The notes: generated by a model not told the origin, from the letters alone. A DNA stretch of 64,000 nt from Candidatus Spechtbacterales bacterium (GCA_040879145.1 JBBDKX010000036.1:434-64433); one strand, 5' to 3'; positions 28,030-64,000 are shown, numbered from the stretch's first letter. Program-made: numbers and translations.

Positions 28030-28165
28030 AGTGCTACCTCCTTCAAGGTACTAACTGACAACATTATATCATACTTTATATAATTTGTCCAGTATTTCTG
28101 GCAAGGACTGTCCTTGCCAGAAAATATATTTCAAAAGTTGTCCAGCACTACCATGAGTCATTAAT

Positions 28166-28184
28166 ACACCGGTCTGACCGGTGT
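28166..28184. promoter_or_regulatory. palindrome ACACCGGTC-N-GACCGGTGT, copy 1 of 3; flanked on both sides by the palindrome ctggcaaggactgtccttgccag
   Basis: Other copies at 28719-28737 and 29351-29369, all intergenic within the small-gene island. Confidence 0.5.
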
Positions 28185-28718: not shown

Positions 28719-28737
28719 ACACCGGTCTGACCGGTGT
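28719..28737. promoter_or_regulatory. palindrome ACACCGGTCTGACCGGTGT, copy 2
   Basis: Identical to copies 1 and 3. Confidence 0.5.
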
Positions 28738-28789
28738 AAAAAAAGCCCCGCACGTTGAAGTTTGGGGCTTCTTGTGCGGGGCTAAAGAG

Positions 28790-29224
28790 CTATGTAAGTG
28801 CGATTTTGGATCCGTTTGAAAGTATCCAGAATACAAAATCGTTTTCTGGGATTCCAATCTTAGCTCCAACTTCGCGGAGTCGCTTGTGAATCTTTTCCGG
28901 AACAGTGCCGGTTTGTGATTCCACGCCCAGAATCGCATTTACAAGATTCGCAAAAAGGTTGAGGGACGCTGCCTCCTCCTGCGTCATACCTACTTCAAGA
29001 CGTTTACTGACCAGAGTCCGCTTCAGTTCCCAAGCGGGACCTTCTTCCGTCTGACGATGGCGCGCGCCCAATCTCTCAAGAGCGCCTCTGATCTTTCGCT
29101 CTGCAGATGCTAAATTGCCCTCCAGCGATTCCACTTTACAGGAGTAGGATTCATGCAAATTGTTCCTGTTGTCAAGAACGTGATGTAGGTGACCCCATTC
29201 CTCAACGGTGAGTTGAATTTTCAT
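28790..29224 (-). CDS. hypothetical protein (144 aa), GC-rich
   Basis: RBS gaaaggaaaaagaATG; a terminator hairpin at 28740-28788 follows. Confidence 0.5.
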   Translation of the reverse strand: MKIQLTVEEWGHLHHVLDNRNNLHESYSCKVESLEGNLASAERKIRGALERLGARHRQTEEGPAWELKRTLVSKRLEVGMTQEEAASLNLFANLVNAILGVESQTGTVPEKIHKRLREVGAKIGIPENDFVFWILSNGSKIALT

Positions 29225-29350
29225 TCTTTTTCCTTTCTTCGGGTTTTGCAAATACTGCGAAAAGTATATCACAGTTAAACTAAAAAATCAAGTTTCAGTT
29301 TTAATTCTCGGCAATTTTTATATTTGGATGCAATTCTAAAAATCATTAAT

Positions 29351-29369
29351 ACACCGGTCTGACCGGTGT
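29351..29369. promoter_or_regulatory. palindrome ACACCGGTCTGACCGGTGT, copy 3
   Basis: Identical to the other copies. Confidence 0.5.
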
Positions 29370-29431
29370 ATAGCAAGGTCGGTACTTAAAAAAGATCTGC
29401 CGAAGCAACTACATCTTTCTCAAATACTGCC

Positions 29432-29510
29432 CTGTGTAACTATTTTTAATTTTGCTAACTTCTTGCGGTGTGCCTTGTGCTACGACATACCCGCCCTCAT
29501 CACCTCCTTC
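29432..29510 (-). repeat. orphan duplicate of the last ~78 bp of uvrA (encodes ...[10 protein letters not shown])
   Basis: 78/79 identical to 29889-29967 (the true uvrA 3' end); flanks the GIY-YIG insert. Confidence 0.85.
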
Positions 29511-29575
29511 CCGATTTTGTTCAAATCTACGATTTGACCCAAAATCGTGGATCCTCGATTTCTCAACAACAGTTG

Positions 29576-29821
29576 CTATTTTTTATTGATAAGCCGCTCA
29601 ATGGCAGCTCGACTTTTCCATCCTTTGATTTGCTTCTCTCTCCTGCGCGCCTCGCTAAGCGTTTTATACTCTTCTAAATGCACTAATTCCCAAGGCTGAG
29701 CTGTCTTAGTGGATTTAACACAACCTTGATTATGTCGCTCTAAGCGACCCAATATATCATTACAAGACCCGATGTAATAAATACCTTTATTTAAAGATTT
29801 AATAATATAAATATAGTACAT
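29576..29821 (-). CDS. small stand-alone GIY-YIG nuclease-domain protein (YhbQ/UPF0213-like)
   Basis: [30 protein letters not shown]...KGWKSR. Confidence 0.75.
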
Positions 29822-29854
29822 AGATAGCAACTGTTGGAGAAATCGGGACAGGCC

Positions 29855-32689
29855 CTATTGATTTAGGACCTTTCGGAGGTATTGACCAGTGTAACTATTT
29901 TTAATTTTGCTAACTTCTTGCGGTGTGCCTTGCGCTACGACATACCCGCCCTCATCACCTCCTTCCGGTCCTAAATCAATCAAATGGTCGGCGTTTTTCA
30001 CAATATCCAGATTGTGCTCTATAACCAAAACTGAATTTCCTGTTGTAACAAGATCTTTAAGTACGCTTAAAAGTTTATTTACATCATCGGGATGCAGTCC
30101 TGTTGTGGGCTCGTCCAAAATATACAGAGTTTGTCCCGTTCCCCTGCGCGCAAGCTCTGTCGCAAGCTTTACCCTTTGCGCCTCCCCTCCGGAGAGCTGT
30201 GGCGCGGGCTGGCCTAAATGAATATACCCAAGTCCTACCTGAGCCAAAACATCCAGCTTGTTACGAACATAGGGTATGTTTTCAAAAAACTCGCGGGCTT
30301 CATCTACTGTCATCTCCAAAACATCGTGAATATCTTTTCCTTTGTATTTTATTTCCAAAACTTCTTTGTTATATCTTTTCCCTCCGCATGTTTCACACTC
30401 CACATAAATATCGCTCATAAAAAACATTTCTACCTTTGTTACTCCCCCACCCCTGCAACGCGAACACCTGCCACCTTTTACATTAAAGCTAAAACGACCA
30501 GGCTTATATCCACGTGCCCGCGATTCAGGAAGCCCCGCAAAAAGTTCACGAACCGGAGTAAACACATTTGTATAGGTTGCGGGATTACTGCGAGGCGTTC
30601 TGCCTATGGGCGACTGATCAATTACAATAGCTTTATCCAGATTATGCAAACCGATGATGCTTTTATGCTCGCCGGGCATGGTGTGCGCGCCGTGAAACTC
30701 TCGCCTTAATACTTTTGCCATAACATCATTTACAAGCGAACTCTTGCCCGAACCCGAAACACCTGTTATTGCAACAAGTTTGCCGAGCGGAATTTTCACA
30801 TCAATGTTTTTTAAATTATTGTGCCTTACTCCCTTAACGGTTAGATATTTTTGCGCATTACTTTTATTTTTTGGAATTTGAGCTTTGACATTTGACATTG
30901 GCATACGTTCGCCTACACGGCGTTTGCCATTCATATATTCCCCCGTCAGCGATTTAGATTTAAGGAGTTGATTATAAGTTCCCTCAAAAACAACCTCTCC
31001 CCCGTGTTTTCCCGCACCCGGACCAATATCTATAATATAGTCTGCTTCTTTTATGGTTAGCGTGTCGTGTTCTACGACCAAAACACTGCTACCCAAATCC
31101 CGCAACTCCTTCATGGTATCTATAAGGCGCTTTTGGTCCCGTGCGTGAAGACCGATTGAGGGTTCGTCCAAAATATACAAGACCCCGGCAAGATGTGAAC
31201 CCAGTTGTGTCGCAAGTTGAATGCGCTGCGCCTCTCCCCCGGACAAAGTTCCGGCCTGACGGGACAAAGTTAGGTAGTGCAACCCTACTCTACGCAAAAA
31301 ATTAAGCCTGTTGACTACCTCTTTAACTACCGGCTCCATTATCTTTTTTTCCGCGCTATTAAAATCTTTACTGTTAGGCAATTCAGAAAAAAAGACGTGC
31401 GCGTCATTAATGTGGTAGCTTACAACATCGTAAATGTTTTTACCTGCTATTTTTACAGACAGGGCTTCTTTTTTAAGACGCTTACCCTGACAAGCGGGAC
31501 AGTTGCGAATATTCATATATTTTTCTATCTCCGCGCGAGTGTGCTCACTCTCAGTCTCCTTGTGCCTGCGTTCCAAATTAGGTATTACGCCTTCCAGGTT
31601 TTCATCTCCGTAAAGTACAATATCCAAAGCTGACTTAGGCAAATCTTTTATCCTCACACTCATTGAAAAACCATACTTTTGACTCATCCTGTGGAGTATC
31701 GTCCAATACCATCCCTGGCGGCCAACCCTATGCGAAGCCATCATCCAAGGACGTATAGCTCCCTCATCCAGTGTTAAGTTTTTATTCGGCACAACAAGCT
31801 CAGGGTCAACTTCCATCTTTGTACCGAGGCCCGAACACTCGGGGCAAGCGCCGTAAGGACTATTAAATGAAAAAGTGCGCGGTTCTACCTCGCGCATGCT
31901 AAACCCGCACTTAGGACAAGCAAACTTTTCAGAAAAAACATGCTCGTCATACACAGGTTGAACCTGTGTATTTTTATGTAAAACTATTAGCTGTCCCTTT
32001 CCTATCTTTAAGGCCGTTTCTATGGAATCTAAAAGCCGTATTTTATCAAGCTCCTTTTCTATTTCCAACTTATCTACAACAACATCTATTGAGTGCTTTT
32101 TCTTAGGATCCAATTCTTTCCCCAATGCTTCTGCGAACGCCATGATAGTGCCGTCAACCCGCGCACGCACAAAACCCGCACTTCCAACCTCTTCTAAAAT
32201 TGCCTTATGCTCACCCTTCTTTCCTGAAACAAGAGGTGCTAAAATCACAACTTCGCCCTTCAGTTTTTTAACTGTTTCCGATATTTCCTGTGGACTGGAT
32301 GCCTCAATTAAAATATTACAATTAGGACAATACGGCTTTCCAATATGCGCAAACAAGAGCCGTAAATAATCGTATATTTCTGTTATCGTGCCCACCGTTG
32401 AACGTGGATTTTTGGAAACCGTCTTTTGGTCTATCGCGATTGCGGGAGAAATACCCTCAATGCTGTCCACTTCCGGCTTATCCATGACACCCAAAAACTG
32501 CCTGGCGTAACTTGAAAGTGATTCTACATAACGTCTTTGGCCTTCCGAATATATGGTGTCAAAAACAAGTGAGCTTTTACCTGAACCGCTTACACCCGTA
32601 AAAACCACAAGACTATTCTTGGGAACATCAATATCTATATTCTTTAAATTGTGGGTTTTAGCGCCCTTTATTTTTAGTTTATTGGTCAT
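29855..32689 (-). CDS. uvrA: excinuclease ABC subunit A
   Basis: Two ABC ATPase modules (GVSGSGKSSL twice); zinc fingers CPKCGFSMREVEPRTFSFNSPYGACPEC; 944 aa. Confidence 0.95.
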   Translation of the reverse strand: MTNKLKIKGAKTHNLKNIDIDVPKNSLVVFTGVSGSGKSSLVFDTIYSEGQRRYVESLSSYARQFLGVMDKPEVDSIEGISPAIAIDQKTVSKNPRSTVGTITEIYDYLRLLFAHIGKPYCPNCNILIEASSPQEISETVKKLKGEVVILAPLVSGKKGEHKAILEEVGSAGFVRARVDGTIMAFAEALGKELDPKKKHSIDVVVDKLEIEKELDKIRLLDSIETALKIGKGQLIVLHKNTQVQPVYDEHVFSEKFACPKCGFSMREVEPRTFSFNSPYGACPECSGLGTKMEVDPELVVPNKNLTLDEGAIRPWMMASHRVGRQGWYWTILHRMSQKYGFSMSVRIKDLPKSALDIVLYGDENLEGVIPNLERRHKETESEHTRAEIEKYMNIRNCPACQGKRLKKEALSVKIAGKNIYDVVSYHINDAHVFFSELPNSKDFNSAEKKIMEPVVKEVVNRLNFLRRVGLHYLTLSRQAGTLSGGEAQRIQLATQLGSHLAGVLYILDEPSIGLHARDQKRLIDTMKELRDLGSSVLVVEHDTLTIKEADYIIDIGPGAGKHGGEVVFEGTYNQLLKSKSLTGEYMNGKRRVGERMPMSNVKAQIPKNKSNAQKYLTVKGVRHNNLKNIDVKIPLGKLVAITGVSGSGKSSLVNDVMAKVLRREFHGAHTMPGEHKSIIGLHNLDKAIVIDQSPIGRTPRSNPATYTNVFTPVRELFAGLPESRARGYKPGRFSFNVKGGRCSRCRGGGVTKVEMFFMSDIYVECETCGGKRYNKEVLEIKYKGKDIHDVLEMTVDEAREFFENIPYVRNKLDVLAQVGLGYIHLGQPAPQLSGGEAQRVKLATELARRGTGQTLYILDEPTTGLHPDDVNKLLSVLKDLVTTGNSVLVIEHNLDIVKNADHLIDLGPEGGDEGGYVVAQGTPQEVSKIKNSYTGQYLRKVLNQ

Positions 32690-32849
32690 AAATTTATAGG
32701 AGTTAGGCTTTAGCTTTTTAGCTTCTTAGACGTTATTTTTGTTTTTCCTACAAAGCTAAGAACCTAACTCCTAAGACCTACTCACGAAGTAAGCATACCA
32801 TTATACAGTGTTGTCAATAGTTAATCAAGTAGTGTACAATATGTCCGCA

Positions 32850-34187
32850 ATGAACAAAAATGTATCGATAGAGAAGATAAAAGAACTCCCCCAAAAACCA
32901 GGCGTGTATTTTTTAAAAAATAAAAACGGGGATGTTTTTTACATTGGAAAAGCAATAAACATAAAAAGCAGGGTGCAAAACCATAAAAACAACAGTGACC
33001 TTTTTAAACCTGAAAAAATACATACTGTTGAGTGGGTGGAAACTGTAAACGAGATAGAAGCGCTCTTAAAAGAGTCTGAGTACATAAAAAAACTTAACCC
33101 AAAAATGAACATCCGCCTGCGAGATGATAAAAAATATTTTTATGTAGGAATTACCGGCGAAGATTTGCCGCGGATATTTATTACCCACCAACCACTCAAC
33201 AAGAAACAAGGTACAAGGATACAAGAAACAAACAAATCTCAAATTACAAATTCCAAACAAAAAGCTAAAAGCCAAAAGCTAAAAGCTATAACCTACTTAG
33301 GTCCCTATACTGACGGAGGGGCTTTAAAGTTGACCCTCAAATACCTAAGAAGGCTTTTTCCTTACTACACAACAAATCCAAAACGGCCTCTTTCCGCTAA
33401 AAAACATGGCAAGCTCCTCTGTTCTTACTGCCATCTCGGATTATGTCCGGGTCCGGAACCTAAAAAAAGCGAGTACCTAAAAAGTATCAAAGTAATGAAG
33501 CAAATCCTTAAGGGCAGAAAAAAGAGCGTAATAAGCGCCCTCAAAAAAGAGATGAAAGAAAACTCCAGACTGGAGAAATTTGAAAAAGCGGCCGAACTTC
33601 GCAATATTGCTCAATCCGTTGAAAATATCTTTTCTCACAACACAGTCCTGCCATGGAATGAAGAAGTCAGTAGCAAGCGAACAGATATGGGAACTGCCGA
33701 ATATCTTGCAAATCTTGTTGGATCAAAAAAACCAATACACTCCATTGAGGGTTACGACATATCAAATATTCAGGGAAAAGAACCCACAGCATCAATGGTG
33801 CGATTTCAAAACGGAAAGCCGGAAAAAAACTTATACAGAAAATTCAATATCAAATCTCCGGATGAACCCAACGACTACCTAATGATGCGCGAAGTTGTCA
33901 GGCGACGATTAAAAAACAACTGGCCCCTTCCGGACCTCATGCTTATTGACGGCGGTCGCGGACAATTAAATTCAGTTCTTGTTGAACTTCGCAGTGCAAA
34001 AGTTAACATACATGCGGTATCTCTTGCTAAGCGCGAGGAGGAGTTATACCTGCCCAAACAAGTAAAACCCATTCCCCTAAATACAATGCCCAGTGAAGTT
34101 GAAAACCTTTTGCGCTATGCCCGGGATGAAGCGCACAGATTTGCTGTAAGCCACCACCGCCAAAGACACAGAAAAAAATTCCAATAA
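32850..34187 (+). CDS. uvrC: excinuclease ABC subunit C, short form lacking the C-terminal (HhH)2 domain
   Basis: N-terminal GIY-YIG (PGVYFLKNKNGDVFYIGKA) and the endonuclease V-like region IEGYDISNIQG; ends ~150 aa short of a typical UvrC. Confidence 0.8.
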   Translation: MNKNVSIEKIKELPQKPGVYFLKNKNGDVFYIGKAINIKSRVQNHKNNSDLFKPEKIHTVEWVETVNEIEALLKESEYIKKLNPKMNIRLRDDKKYFYVGITGEDLPRIFITHQPLNKKQGTRIQETNKSQITNSKQKAKSQKLKAITYLGPYTDGGALKLTLKYLRRLFPYYTTNPKRPLSAKKHGKLLCSYCHLGLCPGPEPKKSEYLKSIKVMKQILKGRKKSVISALKKEMKENSRLEKFEKAAELRNIAQSVENIFSHNTVLPWNEEVSSKRTDMGTAEYLANLVGSKKPIHSIEGYDISNIQGKEPTASMVRFQNGKPEKNLYRKFNIKSPDEPNDYLMMREVVRRRLKNNWPLPDLMLIDGGRGQLNSVLVELRSAKVNIHAVSLAKREEELYLPKQVKPIPLNTMPSEVENLLRYARDEAHRFAVSHHRQRHRKKFQ

Positions 34188-34615: not shown

Positions 34616-34730
34616 CTCGCTTCGCCTGCCTGTGCGTGAACGCACGCAGACAGGCTCGCAGGTATCAGGTTTTAGGTTTTAGGTATTAGACTAATATCTA
34701 ATACTTAGTGCTTAAAACCTATTTGTGAAC
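34615..34730 (+). repeat. intergenic repeat family R2 copy (gctcgcttcgc + GC hairpin cctgcctgtgcgtgaacgcacgcagacagg + AT-rich aggtatYaggttttag hairpin)
   Basis: Homologous copies at 36988-37100 (+), 42132-42275 (-), 55128-55262 (-) and 58796-58913 (-). Confidence 0.65.
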
Positions 34731-34740
34731 GAAGTTAACT

Positions 34741-34825
34741 CCGACGCTATCAAAATCTTTGATTTTGTTATAGCGTCGAGGATCCACGATACCGCAAGCG
34801 AATCAAAGATTCGGGTGGTATCGGG
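34741..34825 (+). promoter_or_regulatory. double-hairpin leader element (E3) immediately 5' of secG
   Basis: GACGCTAT[CAAAATCtttGATTTTG]ttATAGCGTC and CGATACCGCaag[CGAATCaaaGATTCG]ggtGGTATCG; about 97% identical to 37108-37195. Confidence 0.6.
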
Positions 34826-34833
34826 GCAAATAC

Positions 34834-35136: not shown

Positions 35137-36987
35137 ATGTTCCAAGTTCTATGTTCTGTAATTTTGTGTGGCAAAACCGAACAAATGTTTAAAAGAAAGG
35201 AAAATAGACTACTTGCTAAGGAAGGGGCTAAAAAAGAAAAGGAAACCGTAAAATTTAGCCAGCGAATACATGATGGATATGTATCGCTGGTTTCTTTTGG
35301 TAAAGGAGTGTTCCACAGATTCAAACCTCAGGAAAAATATTTTGCGGGCATCGCCGCGCTTATTATTATAAGCTCTCTTTTTGCCATAGGTGTACAGGTG
35401 TACATAACAAAAACAAGCTCTGTTCCAGCCTTTGGCGGAGAATACAGAGAGGCAGTTATCGGTGTTCCGCGTTTTATAAATCCCGTACTTGCGTCTACTA
35501 ACGATGTAGATAGAGATTTGGTCCACCTTGTTTACTCATCTTTGGTGCGCTACGACAAAAATGGGGGTATAGTTCCCGATCTTGCAGAAGAATACACAAT
35601 ATCAGAAGACGGAAAACAGTATCGCTTTACTCTAAAAAACAACCTAAGGTGGGAGGATGGAACTCCCCTCACCGTCGATGATATTTTATACACGATAGGG
35701 CTCATACAAAATCCGCAGTACTCAAGTCCGCTGTTTCAAAGCTGGCAGGGTGTCCAGGTATTTAGCGAAGATAGCAGAACAGTAATTTTTGAACTATCCT
35801 CTCCTTATCCGGCATTTATAGAAAATGTCACCTTAGGAATCCTTCCAAAACACATATGGCAGGATGTAGATGAAAAAAATTTTGTTTTAACAGATTTGAA
35901 TTTAAAACCCATAGGTTCGGGGCTATACAAAGTTGAAAAATTCACAAAAGACAACGCGGGTTTTATATCCTCTTACACGCTTGTGCGCAACGAAAGATAT
36001 TACAACCAAAAACCGTTTATAAATAAGATTACTTTTAAATTTTTCTCATCAGAAACAGACACGGTAAAAGCTTATAACGCCAAGAGTGTAGACGGAATAT
36101 CTTTCATTTCTTCAGGGGTAATAACCGAAATGGAAGACAAAGAAGCCTTCAATATGCATGAATTTAAAATGCCAAGATATTTTTCCATATTCATTAACAA
36201 GGAAAAAAACGAGGCCTTGCAAGACCTAAAGGTGCGCCAGGCTTTAAGTTACGCCACCAACAGAAAACAAATAATAGACGGCGTTCTTTTAGGTTACGCG
36301 CAAGAGGTGGGAACCCCCATACCTCCCAACTTAACTTCATACTACAATGAAAGCGCTGAATTTTTAGACTACAATCCGGAAAAAGCGCGAGAACTTCTTA
36401 GAGAAGCGGGGTGGGAGGACAACAACGAAGATGGTATTTTAGAAAAAAGTACAGGGGAAGAAGATGCCGAAGTGCAGGAATTATCCTTAACCCTTGTAAC
36501 AGCGCAGCGTCCCGAACTTGAGCAGGTTGCGCAACTACTACAAGAGCAGTGGAGGCAAGTTGGAATCAACTTAAATTTTAAAACAGAAGAGTTGGGAGAA
36601 CTTCAACAAAGCACAATACGTTCGCGCAACTATGAGCTACTCATGTTTGGAGAGATTCTCGGAACCATACCGGATCCCTTCAGTTTCTGGCATTCTTCAC
36701 AAAAAAATGACCCGGGACTTAATCTTGCAAATTATGATAATAGGGAAATAGATAAGCTGCTTGAAGAGGCGCGGCAAGAGACAAACAAAGAGGCACGCAT
36801 TGAAAAGCTTAACGAATTTCAGCTCAAGGTAACGGCGGATGTGCCTGCAATATTCCTGTATGACCCCGCATATCTTTACCCTATACAAAAAAGCATACGA
36901 GGAATTGAACCTGTCTTTATGGTTGACAGCTCGTGGCGATTCGCAGACATACAAAACTGGTATATAGCAACTAAGAGAGTATTTTAA
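35137..36987 (+). CDS. ABC transporter substrate-binding protein, family 5 (oligopeptide/dipeptide type), N-terminally membrane-anchored
   Basis: SBP_bac_5-like sequence; the start may be an internal Met near 35185. Confidence 0.75.
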   Translation: MFQVLCSVILCGKTEQMFKRKENRLLAKEGAKKEKETVKFSQRIHDGYVSLVSFGKGVFHRFKPQEKYFAGIAALIIISSLFAIGVQVYITKTSSVPAFGGEYREAVIGVPRFINPVLASTNDVDRDLVHLVYSSLVRYDKNGGIVPDLAEEYTISEDGKQYRFTLKNNLRWEDGTPLTVDDILYTIGLIQNPQYSSPLFQSWQGVQVFSEDSRTVIFELSSPYPAFIENVTLGILPKHIWQDVDEKNFVLTDLNLKPIGSGLYKVEKFTKDNAGFISSYTLVRNERYYNQKPFINKITFKFFSSETDTVKAYNAKSVDGISFISSGVITEMEDKEAFNMHEFKMPRYFSIFINKEKNEALQDLKVRQALSYATNRKQIIDGVLLGYAQEVGTPIPPNLTSYYNESAEFLDYNPEKARELLREAGWEDNNEDGILEKSTGEEDAEVQELSLTLVTAQRPELEQVAQLLQEQWRQVGINLNFKTEELGELQQSTIRSRNYELLMFGEILGTIPDPFSFWHSSQKNDPGLNLANYDNREIDKLLEEARQETNKEARIEKLNEFQLKVTADVPAIFLYDPAYLYPIQKSIRGIEPVFMVDSSWRFADIQNWYIATKRVF

Positions 36988-37100
36988 GCTCGCTTCGCCT
37001 GCCTGTGCGTGAACGCACGCAGACAGGCTCGCAGGTATTAGGTTTTAGCTTTTAGGTATCAGACTAGTACCTAGTACCCACAACCTATTTTGTGAGGTGG
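36988..37100 (+). repeat. R2 repeat copy upstream of pgi
   Basis: gctcgcttcgcctgcctgtgcgtgaacgcacgcagacaggctcgcaggtattaggttttagcttttaggtatcag... Confidence 0.65.
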
Positions 37101-37107
37101 AGCGAAT

Positions 37108-37195
37108 CCCGACGCTATCAAAATCTTTGATTTTGTTATAGCGTCGAGGATCCACGATACCGCAAGCGAATCAAAGATTCGGGCGGTATCGGGAC
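37108..37195 (+). promoter_or_regulatory. double-hairpin leader element (E3), copy 2, immediately 5' of pgi/pmi
   Basis: Same two nested hairpins as 34741-34825. Confidence 0.6.
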
Positions 37196-60060: not shown

Positions 60061-60415
60061 GCGGTTGAAACACTGACCGCTTTCCCTCTGTGTTTGTAAA
60101 AACACAGAGGTATGACTATTAGTACTACTCAGCTTAACCCCTCTCAGGGCTTACACTTATAGCCTATCAACCTGTTAGTCTAACAGGAGTCTAAGAGCTC
60201 TAATCTTGAGGCGGGCTTCGTGCTTATATGCTTTCAGCACTTATCCCTTCCGAACATAGCTACCCAGCGATGCTCCTGGCGGAACAACTGGTACACCAGA
60301 GGTTCGTTCACTCCGGTCCTCTCGTACTAGGAGCGAGTCCCCTCAAAGCTCAAGCGCCCACGGAAGATAGGGACCAACCTGTCTTGCGACGGTCTGAACC
60401 CAGCTCGCGTAGCGT

Positions 60416-60451
<36 letters not shown>

Positions 60452-60481
60452 CCAGCCCCAGGATACGCCGAGCCGACATCG

Positions 60482-60872
60482 CTGTCGATTTTTCTCTTGT
60501 TGCCAAGAGGATCGGACTATATCTTCATCCTATTGCGGACTTTAGGCGTTCTTAGCCATAGCCTCGCTTTTTATAATAGGAGTCGGCGTGTTGTCCTTCA
60601 AATTTTTTCGAAGAACCTCCCCTTTCGGGTCAGTCTCTACGGGGTCATAACCCAATTTGTATTCCATAGATGGAATAATATGTGGTTTAACGATCTGCTT
60701 AAGCAATGGAATACTCGATTAACCACAGGTCTTTGAAATTGAGTTAGACTTCCCACGGTATTGTCCATACGTATATTCTACCATTATTTGGTAGCGCTAG
60801 TGCATGGAGTTCACCGTTATAAGCCGAATTGTTTTTGTATGAGATTACTCTCATAGGCACCCCGATATGTTA
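60482..60872 (-). ncRNA. probable group I intron (~391 nt, no ORF) inserted at 23S position ~2500 (E. coli numbering) in the peptidyl-transferase region
   Basis: Interrupts GGCACCU | CGAUGUCGGCUC; 5' exon ends in U, insert ends in G; IGS GGGGUGCC pairs with the exon GGCACCU; UAGUC P7-like element. Confidence 0.6.
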
Positions 60873-61492
60873 AGGTGCCGAACCTCCCCGTCGATGTGGA
60901 CTCTCGGGGGAGACCAGCCTGTTATCCCCGGGGTAACTTTTATCTGGTGATCTTCCTCTTTTCTATAAAAGAAGGTCGGTTCACTAAGTTCTGCTTTCGC
61001 AACTCTCTACTCCAGTAAACTGGAGTAGAGTCTGTTACTTCCCTGAGATTAAAATCACAGGGTTTTACAGAGCGCGGCTTATTTGCCTTGCAGTAAAGCT
61101 GGCTTGTGCCTTTACACTATCGCTCCGATTTCCATCCGGAGCTAGCCAACCTTAATAAACGCCTCCGCTACCATTTAGGAGGCAAGCGCCCCACTTAAAC
61201 TACCTACCATCCACTGTCCCGAATGTGTTTAGCATCCGGTTAGTCACAGTATTTTGAAAGATGGGTATTTCACTGGCGACTCCACACTGGCCGAAACCAG
61301 CGCTTCAAAGTCTCCCCACTATGCTACGCAGCCAAAACACTGCAACAATAGAAAGCTGTAGTAAAGCTCCCGGGGTCTTTCCGTCTATCCGCGGGTAACC
61401 GGCATCTTCACCGGTACTGCATTTTCACCGGGCTTCTCGTCGAGACAGTTGTCCAGTCGTTACGCCTTTCGTGCGGGACAGAACTTACCTGC

Positions 61493-61541
<49 letters not shown>

Positions 61542-62341
61542 CGGCGCTTGTATCACCAGCTTTCCAGCGAACTGGAAAACCAACAATACTTAACGTTCCG
61601 GCATTGGTCAGGCGTCACCCCCTATACATCCCCTTACGGGTTCGCAGGGAGCTGTGTTTTTGATAAACAGTCGCTAGACAGACTTTAGCTGCGCCCTATA
61701 TTGCTATAGGGAAGGCATATCCCTAAGTTACGCCTAGTTTTTTTGCCGAGTTCCTTGACGAGAACTCACCCGTTCGCCTTGGTATACTCTACCTGCCCAC
61801 CTGTGTCGGTTTGCGGTACGGATTCATATCTATTAACCTTAGAAGCTTTTCTCGGAAGGTTGCTGGGAGGAATAATCTCCATTACAGAGACTTTTCCCGA
61901 CGCTTAGAATTGCCTTACGGCCACCTGGGCATTTCTCCCAGGCATTCCTTACGCAAGGAACACAAATCCAATAACATGCTCCCCTTACTAACCTCCGTCA
62001 CTCCGTCGAATAAATATGAAGAGATGGAATATTAACCATCTGTCCATCCCCGTGACCCTTTCGGGCCCCGGGTTAGGGCCGCCTAACCCTTGGCTGATTG
62101 ACATTGCCAAGGAAACCTTGGGCTTTCGGCGTGGGGGTCTCTCACCCCCATTGCGGTTACTCATGCCAACATTCTCTCTTCCTGCCGCTCCACCATGCCT
62201 TACAGCACAGCTTCAGCGCAACAGAAATGCTCTCCTACCACACACTACCCAAAGGTAGTGCATCCACGTCTTCGGTAGTAAACTTTAGCCCCGTTAAATT
62301 TTCAGCGCAGAAACTCTCGACTAGTAAGCTGTTACGCACTT

Positions 62342-62374
<33 letters not shown>

Positions 62375-62878
62375 AGCTGTTTGTGAATTTCTACATCTTT
62401 TCCCACTTAGTTTACATTTAGGGACCTTAGACTGTGATCTGGGCTGTTTCCCTTTTGAACATGGAGCTTAGCCCCCATATTCTAACTTCCTGCTATGACT
62501 TGATAGAATTCGGAGTTTATCTGATCTTACTCAGCAAATGCCTCGCAAGACCAATTAGTGCTCTACCTCTACCAAGATAAGGCAGGAGCTAGCCCTAAAG
62601 CTATTTCGGAGAGAACCAGCTATTACCAGGCTCGATTAGCTTTTCACTGCGACCCACGGCTCATCCCCTCCTATTGCATCAGAAGTGGGTTCGGGCCTCC
62701 CCCCGGTCTTACCCGGGGTTCACCCTGGCCATGGGTAGATCGCCTGGCTTCGGGTCTATTGCGTGCTACTTTAATTCGCCGTATTAAGACTCGGTTTCCC
62801 TATGGCTTCGTTCGTTAAAGAACTTAGCCTGCAACACACAATAACTCGTTGGCTCATTCTGCAAAAGGCACTGCGTCA

Positions 62879-63013
62879 CCCCTCACATGGAATGAATCCT
62901 GCTTACATTTCACTAAAAAGTGATGATGTTTTTAGCATTATTTTAATTTAAGAATATTTCCTGAACTACGATTTTACCCGCAGGCCAAGAAATATTCATT
63001 CCATGTGAGGGGC
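62879..63013 (-). other. ~135-nt AT-rich expansion hairpin in 23S domain I (replaces the short E. coli hairpin ACGCTTAGGCGTG)
   Basis: cccctcacatggaatgaat ... attcattccatgtgagggg closing stem. Confidence 0.5.
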
Positions 63014-64000
63014 TCCGCATCCTTGTAGGCATATGGTTTCAGGTTCTATTTCACCGCCCTCACCGGGCTACTTTTCACCTTTCCCTCACGGTACTTGTTC
63101 GCTATCGATCACCAAAGATATTTAGCCTTACCCGATAGGTCGGGTAGATTCACCCGAGATGGACGTGTCTCGGGCTACTCAGGATACACAACCGGTAATC
63201 AAAACTTTTAAAATACGGGGCTTTTACCCTCTTTGGCCGCCCTTTCCAGGGTCATTTTTCTAAGTTCTTCATACGTTATGTCGTGTCCTACAACCCCATT
63301 TTGTGCAAGCACAAAATGGTTTGGGCTCCTCCCTCTTCGCTCGCCGCTACTAAGGGAATACGTGACCTAATGGTCTTTTGTATCTTTTCCTCCGCTTACT
63401 GAAATGTTTTACTTCAGCGGGTACGGTCTCCGGCATAAAGCCGGAGTACTGTGGGTTTGCCACAGTGGGTTTCCCCATTCGGAAATCTCCGGATCAAAGG
63501 TTGCTACGCACCTCCCCGAAGCTTATCGCAGCTACGCCACGTCCTTCATCCCTCTTTGGTGTCAAGGCATCCACCATATGCCCTTATAAAATGTTACAAC
63601 ACTCAACGGAATAAGTGTTGTAACTACGGTCAATGTAGATCTAACTCTGAGTCGTAAAGGAAGGGTCTAAAGACCCCCTACAAACCAAAGTTAGATAACC
63701 GCGGAATTATAAGACTCTCTTGTTAGTCCTCTATCTATCAAATAAAATCAAACTTGAAAGATAAAGGACAATTGTATTCCATATAAATATAGAATACGGA
63801 TAACTTTTTATGTCTTGTCGTTGTCCTCTAACTTTTCCTGTAAAGTTTTGAGGACATATGAATCTCATAGAAAGACCTACAAGATTATTTGACAAAGTTC
63901 AACAAAAAAGCCGCTCGCAAGCGACTGTCTGAGTGCGCGCAAATTGTGGCGCATTAGCCGCTTGTCTTAAATTTCTTTATTGAGCTTTTTTGCATACTCA

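Follow-up and report, generated by a model that had tools for sequence, protein, structure and literature searches.

A GIY-YIG Nuclease Gene between Two Copies of the uvrA End in a Candidatus Spechtbacterales Genome: A Probable Mobile Element with a Replacement Gene End

Results

A small nuclease gene lies between two copies of the uvrA end

We analyzed a stretch of 64,000 nucleotides (nt) from Candidatus Spechtbacterales bacterium (GCA_040879145.1, JBBDKX010000036.1:434-64433; hereafter the window). In this window, the 3' end of uvrA is duplicated, and a small GIY-YIG nuclease gene of the UPF0213 type lies between the two copies. The insert is very probably a mobile element that carries a replacement for the gene end it displaces; this carried copy is called the cargo below. 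A sequence-only reading of the window had proposed a mobile unit in the uvrA 3' end, and the proposal was strengthened, because defined inverted ends were found for the unit, which is present at many other loci as well. In our fuller interpretation, Patescibacteria harbor a family of very small selfish elements, which bring a replacement gene end and move by homology-dependent copying stimulated by the nuclease, and the insert is one of its autonomous members. We consider this whole statement likely, with considerable room for doubt. The features of uvrA and its duplicated end are as follows (aa, amino acids; ORF, open reading frame).

29855-32689, minus strand: uvrA (944 aa), from the ORF list, with the Pfam domains UvrA_inter, UvrA_DNA-bind and ABC_tran
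29889-29966, minus strand: repeat core A, inside the functional uvrA, identical to 29434-29511 at 77 of 78 positions
29434-29511, minus strand: relic copy A' of the uvrA segment, from the repeat search, interpreted as the displaced native 3' end
29855-29888, minus strand: tail B (..TGQYLRKVLNQ and the TAG stop codon at 29855-29857), presumably element-borne
29409-29433, minus strand: relic tail B' (..GQYLRKM and the TAG stop codon at 29409-29411)
29351-29371, strand not assigned: terminator-like hairpin ACACCGGTCTGACCGGTGT, just past the relic
29857-29885 and 29952-29980, strand not assigned: 29-nt inverted repeat forming a hairpin that encloses copy A, 23 of 29 positions complementary, including a perfect 14-mer

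The direct repeat pairs 29415-29511 with 29870-29966 over 97 nt at 92% identity. Its 78-nt core has a single mismatch (29478 T, 29933 C), which is synonymous (GCA and GCG). The remaining 19 nt hold seven mismatches, and ..TGQYLRK is encoded by both versions. A repeat of about 80 nt with one mismatch at a distance of 455 nt is far beyond chance. The 78-nt duplication with one mismatch had been reported in the sequence-only reading at coordinates that were essentially right, shifted by 1-2 nt. That reading had also taken the repeat for the very last 78 bp of uvrA, which proved incorrect, since the gene lies on the minus strand and the repeat stops 31 nt before the stop codon. The second copy does encode the ending ..YLRKM*, as had been stated; it lies downstream in gene orientation, not upstream.

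The rest of uvrA runs without interruption into the copy at 29889-29966, which leads to the ending ..YLRKVLNQ. Tail B is only about 63% identical to the relic tail. Its codons CTC, CGA, GTC and CTA each make up 7-12% of their own codon family in the window. A search with the UvrA C-terminus showed that YLRKVLN-type tails are present in other UvrA proteins. The hairpin ACACCGGTCTGACCGGTGT was found three times (28165-28184, 28719-28738 and 29351-29371), each time after one of successive minus-strand ORFs. Because it recurs at 28165 and 28719, the hairpin at 29351-29371 looks native to this genome. It is probably the native uvrA terminator, and the three copies are probably a genome-specific terminator family. 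Since the relic adjoins this recurrent hairpin, and tail B combines four rare codons with a natural YLRKVLN-type ending, in our reading the element supplied the end that uvrA now has, and the native end is the copy displaced downstream. We infer that the last ~11 codons of uvrA, and possibly more, come from the element and that the gene is functional. An empty uvrA junction would read ..GATTTAGGACCGGAAGGAGG.., followed by core A and the native tail CAGGGCAGTATTTGAGAAAGATGTAG. A second perfect palindrome in this part of the window, TCTGGCAAGGACTGTCCTTGCCAGA, is repeated at 28097 and 28184.

The inverted repeat around copy A had a score reached by no shuffle and a folding z of -4.1. Among other loci, a stem enclosing the cargo reached significance for the atpG lineage but for none of nine further cases tested. 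A stem around the cargo was accordingly dropped as a general feature. An assembly artifact is an unlikely source of the duplication, because independent contigs of other organisms (L092, L173, L174 and L210; loci outside the window are given by L numbers) show the same architecture.

The element core is a double hairpin with defined inverted ends

The uvrA insert totals 377 nt, and the element core has a length of 340 nt. The parts are listed below.

29509-29848: element core, a double hairpin of 340 nt, bounded by the 7-nt inverted ends TCCCGAT and ATCGGGA
29849-29854, minus strand: linker GGCCTG, from the uvrA stop codon to the left inverted end
29842-29848, minus strand: left terminal inverted repeat TCCCGAT, conserved in the 95 ORF-less and 16 ORF-bearing pattern-matching elements listed
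29824-29841, minus strand: left arm of stem 1, TTCTCCAACAGTTGCTAT (18 nt), pairing with 29560-29579
29576-29821, minus strand: GIY-YIG nuclease gene (81 aa), UPF0213/Slx1 type, from Pfam
29560-29579, minus strand: right arm of stem 1, overlapping the stop codon of the nuclease ORF
29544-29559, strand not assigned: central palindrome ATCGAGGATCCACGAT, which looks like a right end joined directly to a left end
29516-29543, minus strand: arm-2 hairpin, 28 nt, folding z = -4.85
29509-29515, minus strand: right terminal inverted repeat ATCGGGA, overlapping the beginning of the relic copy by its last 3 nt (GGA)

The order of the skeleton is TCCCGAT, stem, ORF, stem, ATCGAGGATCCACGAT, hairpin and ATCGGGA, and the two ends are inverted complements. 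When the core was folded as a single strand, it formed exactly two hairpins (-56 kcal/mol, z = -6.6), with the nuclease ORF in the loop of the first. The central palindrome had three matches in the window, compared with 0.08 expected. The sequence of stem 1 differs from that of other family members, and its complementarity is kept. In tRNA-targeting relatives (L001, L002, L012, L013 and L015), the position of the arm-2 hairpin holds a replacement tRNA. Short linkers comparable to GGCCTG were present in L092 (GGGATGG) and L173 (CATG). No terminator precedes the nuclease gene, which is therefore probably transcribed by read-through from uvrA. The GIY-YIG gene is the sole conserved ORF between the repeats, and no recombinase gene was found in the insert. 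The adjoining ORF (160 aa, 28790-29272) had no Pfam match.

The nuclease is a catalytic domain of the UPF0213/Slx1 type

A GIY-YIG ORF of 82 aa had been placed between the two copies in the sequence-only reading. The domain was confirmed (Pfam PF01541, E = 4e-19, residues 4-74 of 81), and the length was revised to 81 aa with the ATG at 29821 as start codon, or to 84 aa with the TTG at 29830. Y5, Y16, G18, R26, H30 and E62 were invariant in the alignment of 16 homologues. The protein has the GIY and YIG motifs and the catalytic Arg and Glu without an extra domain, as in minimal UPF0213/Slx1-like proteins, in which the domain has ~80-100 aa. No second domain was found; all 81 residues make up the catalytic domain, with no room for a DNA-binding domain. 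The classical I-TevI/Seg architecture of GIY-YIG domain, linker and C-terminal DNA-binding domain is absent, and the NCBIfam grpIintron_endo model gave 17.5 bits, below its cut-off of 56.

A profile of the nuclease was searched against the PDB. The best matches were the UPF0213 structures 1zg2 (7e-11) and 1ywl (6e-9), followed by SLX1 (5e-5) and I-TevI (4e-4), in agreement with the earlier description of the protein as YhbQ-like. The AlphaFold2 model had a mean predicted local distance difference test score (pLDDT) of 94.6. In a Foldseek search with this model, 1zg2 ranked first; nine SLX1 chains came next, before I-TevI and UvrC. The matched SLX1 structures (7cq3, 6sei, 6seh and 7cq4) include complexes with branched DNA. 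SLX1 cleaves branched DNA without sequence specificity, and its partner in eukaryotic repair is SLX4. These results indicate that the nuclease is nearer to UPF0213 and SLX1 than to the UvrC/I-TevI branch, by both sequence and fold.

The nuclease homologues in Patescibacteria are 47-69% identical to the window protein. The closest ones (62-69%) occupy different targets, none of them at uvrA, which indicates that the target changes faster than the protein. It was also remarked in the sequence-only reading that a GIY-YIG protein of this small size has no known mobilizing activity, and this still stands. A 2006 survey placed prokaryotic Slx1-like proteins in the Slx1 lineage and considered them mainly vertically inherited repair enzymes (PMC1564403).

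The skeleton recurs with and without the nuclease gene

Metagenome contigs were scanned on the basis of the central palindrome, with the pattern ATCGNGGATCCNCGAT, a gap of 6-36 nt and ATCGGGA. The skeleton, with or without the ORF, was present in at least 120 metagenome contigs and also in Patescibacteria genomes. The matches listed contain 95 ORF-less double hairpins with lengths of 41-90 nt and several ORF-bearing copies besides. The counts for ORF-less copies in this study refer to these listed matches. Their arms were distinct in 183 of 192 sequences and paired from the outermost base, with a mean outer stem of 4.2 bp compared with 0.5 bp in shuffles. The motifs TCCCGAT, ATCG(N)GGATCC(N)CGAT and ATCGGGA were found in L001, L002, L009, L012-L015, L092, L100, L110, L170, L174 and L209-L211. 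In the homologue loci, the same three motifs surround the ORF and the stem sequences are different. The family therefore exists in a protein-coding form and, in greater numbers, in a short form; the skeleton alone is common to the two.

Two ORF-less copies are present in the window itself, in addition to the copy in uvrA.

34740-34826, plus strand: ORF-less double-hairpin element, 7 nt before the ATG (34834) of a SecG-like ORF, folding z = -5.0
37107-37194, plus strand: second ORF-less double-hairpin element, TCCCGAC..GTCGAGGATCCACGAT..ATCGGGA, 7 nt before the ATG (37202) of a PGI-like ORF, z = -7.8

These two copies are almost identical, and no clear relic of a gene 5' end was seen upstream of them. 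A similar position was common among the ORF-less copies; for 45 of 95, a long ORF starts no more than 40 nt from the element end. None of the 95 merely interrupted an otherwise intact tRNA. Directly upstream of both window copies, a module of ~90 nt is shared between 34616-34700 and 36987-37070. It contains a GC-rich hairpin (GCCTGCCTGTGCGTGAACGCACGCAGACAGGC) and an AT-rich palindrome (GGTATTAGACTAATATCTAATAC) and is separated from each element by ~35 nt of unrelated sequence. This module may be part of a larger composite repeat.

The G.T pairs of 39 oriented ORF-less elements showed no strand bias (41 and 42 on the two strands), and the structure therefore appears to be formed at the DNA level and not in RNA. 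No Rfam family matched the element, even at E<=1, in a search that did detect the 23S rRNA group I intron of the window. Classical homing endonucleases need no conserved sequences in their own element. The skeleton is conserved here even in copies that lack the ORF, so something must recognize the element itself, which is transposon-like and unlike those enzymes.

The displaced sequence is replaced at other loci

The sequence-only reading had suggested that the unit carries a replacement gene end. We found the same logic in three other 3'-end cases and in many 5'-end and tRNA cases. A conserved gene that holds the insert, a homologous copy of its end and an adjoining relic were observed together in the window and in L173, L092, L174, L110, L155, L137, L189 and L210. 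In the 3' type, the order is functional end, stop codon, short linker, element, and relic end with the native terminator; L173, where the gene is fusA, and L092, with an unidentified gene, are among the examples besides uvrA. In the 5' type, the first 12-27 codons are present as a relic directly adjoining TCCCGAT. On the right side, ATCGGGAC is followed by a short A-rich leader and a fresh copy of these codons, which is seamlessly joined to the gene. Duplications of 5' ends were found at atpG (L174 and L009), topA (L110 with the ORF, L155 without), leuS (L137 and L189) and a PD-(D/E)XK nuclease gene (L210 and L209). The element nuclease gene was co-oriented with its target in all cases.

The same insertion points with the same cargo were present in different organisms, both at topA (L110 and L155) and at leuS (L137 and L189). 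At the PD-(D/E)XK gene, the relics of L209 and L210 end ~13 nt apart (..CPR| and ..CPRAYFL|), which means that the insertion point within a target is not absolutely fixed. The flanking repeats consist of 35-110 nt of diverged homologous sequence, with no short target duplication of fixed length.

The element splits tRNA-Ala between anticodon nucleotides 35 and 36 in L001, L002, L012, L013 and L015. In these loci, a complete second tRNA-Ala is located in the loop of hairpin 2. The cargo thus lies within the element in tRNA targets and outside the inverted ends in protein-gene targets. The tRNA-type insertions have no duplication at the element ends. Relic tRNA halves beside ORF-bearing elements carry extra ORF-less copies in the D, T or anticodon arms (L014, 1400-1500; L013, ~1860-1930; L015, ~1880-1950; L002, 5400-5440). 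Having picked up these further copies, the outer halves are taken to be dead relics. DNA of tRNA shape seems to have been hit repeatedly.

The wider nuclease family is linked to tRNA genes

We then extended the comparison to relatives of the nuclease, with one genome per species. More than 488 relatives were found in Patescibacteria, Bacteroidota, Acidobacteriota, Ignavibacteriota and other phyla. Of 89 loci, 74 had a tRNA gene within 400 nt, in most cases directly adjoining the ORF, and the adjoining tRNAs were always on the same strand. Flanking direct repeats scoring at least 20 were detected in 44 of 62 evaluable loci and in none of 62 in the reversed-sequence control. GIY-YIG units thus do lie beside duplications elsewhere, a point on which the sequence-only reading depended. 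These results show that the usual target of the family is tRNA genes and not protein genes. This target, the double-hairpin skeleton and the ORF-less derivatives, including the two in the window, had been missed in that reading. An exhaustive profile search (E<=1e-3) gave 23,950 clusters at the 50% identity level, nearly all of 80-130 aa.

Tandem arrays of nuclease gene and tRNA were present in L051, L057, L066 and L070, and two array units of L057 were 100% identical. In arrays of Bacteroidota and Acidobacteriota (L051, L057, L066, L070, L042, L048 and L022), the last unit is truncated and retains a 5' portion of the nuclease gene. On first impression, truncated last copies appeared to be a systematic feature. 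This was given up when at least the last copy of L048, which has an in-frame stop, proved to be an older decayed insertion. Outside Patescibacteria, one arm of the downstream tRNA copy is replaced by a GC-rich hairpin such as TCCCGAGGCATCTCGGGA.

Discussion

In this study, we found a 340-nt double-hairpin element with a copy of the uvrA end attached to it. In the movement that we propose, a unit of uvrA end, linker and core would have entered uvrA ~110 nt before its stop codon, with a copy of the last ~37 uvrA codons as cargo. UvrA would now end on the element copy (..YLRKVLNQ*), and the native end (..YLRKM* and the terminator) would have been displaced downstream as a relic. The element could then be copied into an unoccupied uvrA by recombination, with cargo and relic acting as portable homology arms to the same coding sequence. 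One possible route is double-strand-break repair of an empty allele from an occupied one, in which the left end would find its partner in the cargo copy and the right end in the relic copy. Another would be integration of an excised circle by a single crossover. Recombination in the duplicated segment would leave a near-identical core with a foreign tail on one side and a native tail on the other, as observed. The specific route is offered tentatively, and we would not rely on it.

The small nuclease would make the initiating cut. We infer that this Slx1-like protein may act on the hairpins of the element or on branched recombination joints, recognizing the shape of the DNA and not a long target sequence. 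Recognition of shape is the most likely mode because the nuclease is SLX1-like and has no DNA-binding domain. The target would be set by the cargo and not by the protein, because the same insertion points recur with their cargo across organisms and nucleases of 62-69% identity occupy different genes.

Several points weigh against this interpretation. The insertion event is deduced from the architecture, and the nearest UvrA in the C-terminal search is ~70% identical to that of the window. No second uvrA-associated element was found among the homologue loci, those of the three nuclease homologues closest to the window protein included. The only further uvrA in these loci (L126) is uninterrupted, but it is distant. 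The distribution of mismatches (1/78 in the core, 7/19 in the tail) fits recombination mosaics without proving them. A nuclease of 81 aa would have to restrict its cutting to the sites needed. The stem enclosing the cargo was significant in the window and the atpG lineage only. Finally, the skeleton conserved in ORF-less copies fits a transposon-like enzyme that recognizes ends at least as well as it fits homing.

This last point leads to a true cut-and-paste or copy-and-paste transposon, whose GIY-YIG transposase would recognize the hairpin ends and the central palindrome and insert at loose G|C sites. Cargo duplications would then be seen only because insertions in essential genes survive with a replacement end attached. 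We consider such a transposon unlikely, though several observations favor it. Short derivatives that keep the motifs of a longer form are the classic relationship between non-autonomous and autonomous transposons. The ORF-less derivatives keep the exact end and center motifs while their stems vary freely, terminal inverted repeats are common to ORF-bearing copies and the 95 ORF-less ones, and three copies are present in the window. The central palindrome resembles two abutted ends. The tRNA-type insertions are clean from end to end, with the cargo within the element. The relic always ends in ..G before TCCCGAT, and among the ORF-less copies G precedes the left end in 62 of 96 and C follows the right end in 67 of 96. 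Against it, the cargo of protein genes lies outside the inverted ends and is yet co-inherited at the same site in different organisms at topA and leuS, and a transposase that recognized only the ends would leave it behind. Moreover, no short target duplication of fixed length was seen, and the sole protein is a GIY-YIG nuclease and not a DDE, HUH, tyrosine or serine enzyme. To our knowledge, the GIY-YIG fold is used by no known transposase class.

Passive spread is improbable. It would require natural transformation and ordinary RecA recombination through the flanking conserved sequence, with the nuclease and hairpins used otherwise, for example to stabilize the insertion or to kill cells that lose it. 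The sequence on both flanks is always conserved, either coding or tRNA, as would suit allelic replacement among diverged genomes, and ORF-less copies far exceed ORF-bearing ones. However, the intact ORF, the invariant catalytic residues across homologues of 47-69% identity and the ~24,000 clusters indicate selection on activity. The strict conservation of the skeleton motifs would also be left without explanation.

Local tandem duplication of the uvrA end around a resident, non-mobile UPF0213 repair nuclease that works with UvrABC is very improbable. The position of the nuclease gene between uvrA and the terminator, with uvrC adjoining uvrA, would suit such a role, as would the treatment of prokaryotic Slx1-like proteins as mainly vertical repair enzymes (PMC1564403). 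The comparative data contradict it: the homologues are unlinked to uvr genes, with tRNA genes and many genes of other kinds as neighbors. The family also shows inverted ends, ORF-less copies, tandem arrays and decayed copies, and the mismatches change abruptly between core and tail. An intron-like insertion that is excised from the RNA, or what is left of an integrase-borne island, is equally improbable: the hairpins could fold in RNA and duplicated gene 3' ends are typical of the att sites of integrative elements, but no Rfam intron or other family matches the element, G.U pairs have no strand bias, relic halves gather further insertions (L002, L013, L014 and L015) and so are not spliced together again, and the insert is only 377 nt with no recombinase gene, next to an ORF without a Pfam match.

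Returning to the element with a carried gene end, we compared it with known systems. The free-standing Seg genes of phages, such as SegB in the T4/T6 tRNA cluster, are similar in that an intron-free GIY-YIG gene lies beside tRNA genes, and the tandem arrays described above add to this likeness. Homologues of SegB occur preferentially near tRNAs, and they cause a tRNA segment to be amplified in tandem (PMC13096335). Seg and I-TevI enzymes have 200-270 aa with a C-terminal DNA-binding domain, whereas the element nuclease, of 81 aa, consists of the catalytic domain alone and falls in the Slx1/UPF0213 branch rather than with UvrC and I-TevI (PMC1564403). Seg genes also have no conserved inverted ends, ORF-less derivatives or carried target replacement, and the element family has all three.

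Fungal mitochondrial elements share the replacement strategy: the insert lies in a conserved gene, supplies a foreign copy of the displaced portion, keeps the gene whole and leaves a native relic. An endonuclease insertion in Allomyces atp6 (Paquin et al., 1994) is reportedly such a mitochondrial case. Fungal mitochondrial double-hairpin elements resemble the element in shape only. In Tremella fuciformis, mitochondrial "introns with N-terminal duplication" carry a duplicated piece of the host gene (PMC7315562). The fungal elements are organellar, usually encode LAGLIDADG or long GIY-YIG enzymes and are often derived from introns. In contrast, the element described here is in a bacterial chromosome, has a 340-nt core with a defined double-hairpin skeleton and can also carry tRNA cargo.

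Integrative islands and prophages are likewise flanked by a direct repeat of a gene 3' end, with element sequence completing the gene. They use a tyrosine or serine recombinase, which was not found here, and the insert is ~100 times smaller. Their repeats are a short identical core, whereas the repeats here are 35-110 nt and diverged, and 5' ends and anticodon loops are also used. Miniature inverted-repeat transposable elements (MITEs) are similar in that they consist of short palindromes with conserved ends, exist in many copies per genome and have a protein-coding version that is rarer. They differ from the present family, in which there is no known transposase class and no fixed short target duplication and a piece of the target gene travels along. 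SLX1 and the bacterial UPF0213 (YhbQ-like) minimal nucleases are the best sequence and fold matches of the nuclease; in the searchable literature, we found no description of mobility, tRNA linkage or a hairpin skeleton for them.

Seg genes, fungal elements and islands each lack the combination of a catalytic-only Slx1-type nuclease, a skeleton with non-coding derivatives and replacement cargo. In literature of incomplete coverage, we found no published description of mini GIY-YIG elements linked to tRNAs or gene ends in bacteria. A selfish element that replaces what it displaces is of a known kind, and there is a real chance that the mechanism itself is new. A stronger claim is that the family is a new class of bacterial mobile element, the smallest autonomous one known with its 340-nt core, in which a structure-specific Slx1-like nuclease acts on the double-hairpin ends of the element or on a branched joint made by cargo or relic with a target, and the carried homology sets the landing site. 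We regard this claim as doubtful at present.

UPF0213/YhbQ-like proteins form a very large, uncharacterized family (~24,000 clusters) and have so far been considered housekeeping repair enzymes. The window provides a clean, recent-looking case that links a protein of this type to a DNA skeleton, non-coding derivatives and a strategy of carried replacement. Carried replacement permits residence in essential conserved genes without introns or inteins. If the proposed movement is correct, a nuclease family would be added to the mobile-DNA repertoire, and lateral replacement of gene termini would have a mechanism. Split or duplicated tRNA genes and chimeric gene ends in Patescibacteria would be explained, which matters for annotation and gene phylogenies. 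The system would be very small, with its choice of target perhaps set by short homologous cargo. Should the cargo indeed set the target, this would be a naturally homology-programmed insertion, and the presence of UPF0213 genes beside tRNAs across many phyla would be explained.

Other features of the window

The UvrC of the window (32808-34187) has only 459 aa, with GIY-YIG, UVR and RNase-H-like domains; the C-terminal helix-hairpin-helix region was not detected by Pfam. The 23S rRNA gene (60099-63597, minus strand) is 3,499 nt long, compared with a model of 2,925 nt. Its group I intron (60493-60884) accounts for 392 of the ~574 extra nt, and a second insertion may be present. A group I intron in the 23S rRNA gene is usual in Patescibacteria and fits the taxonomic assignment.

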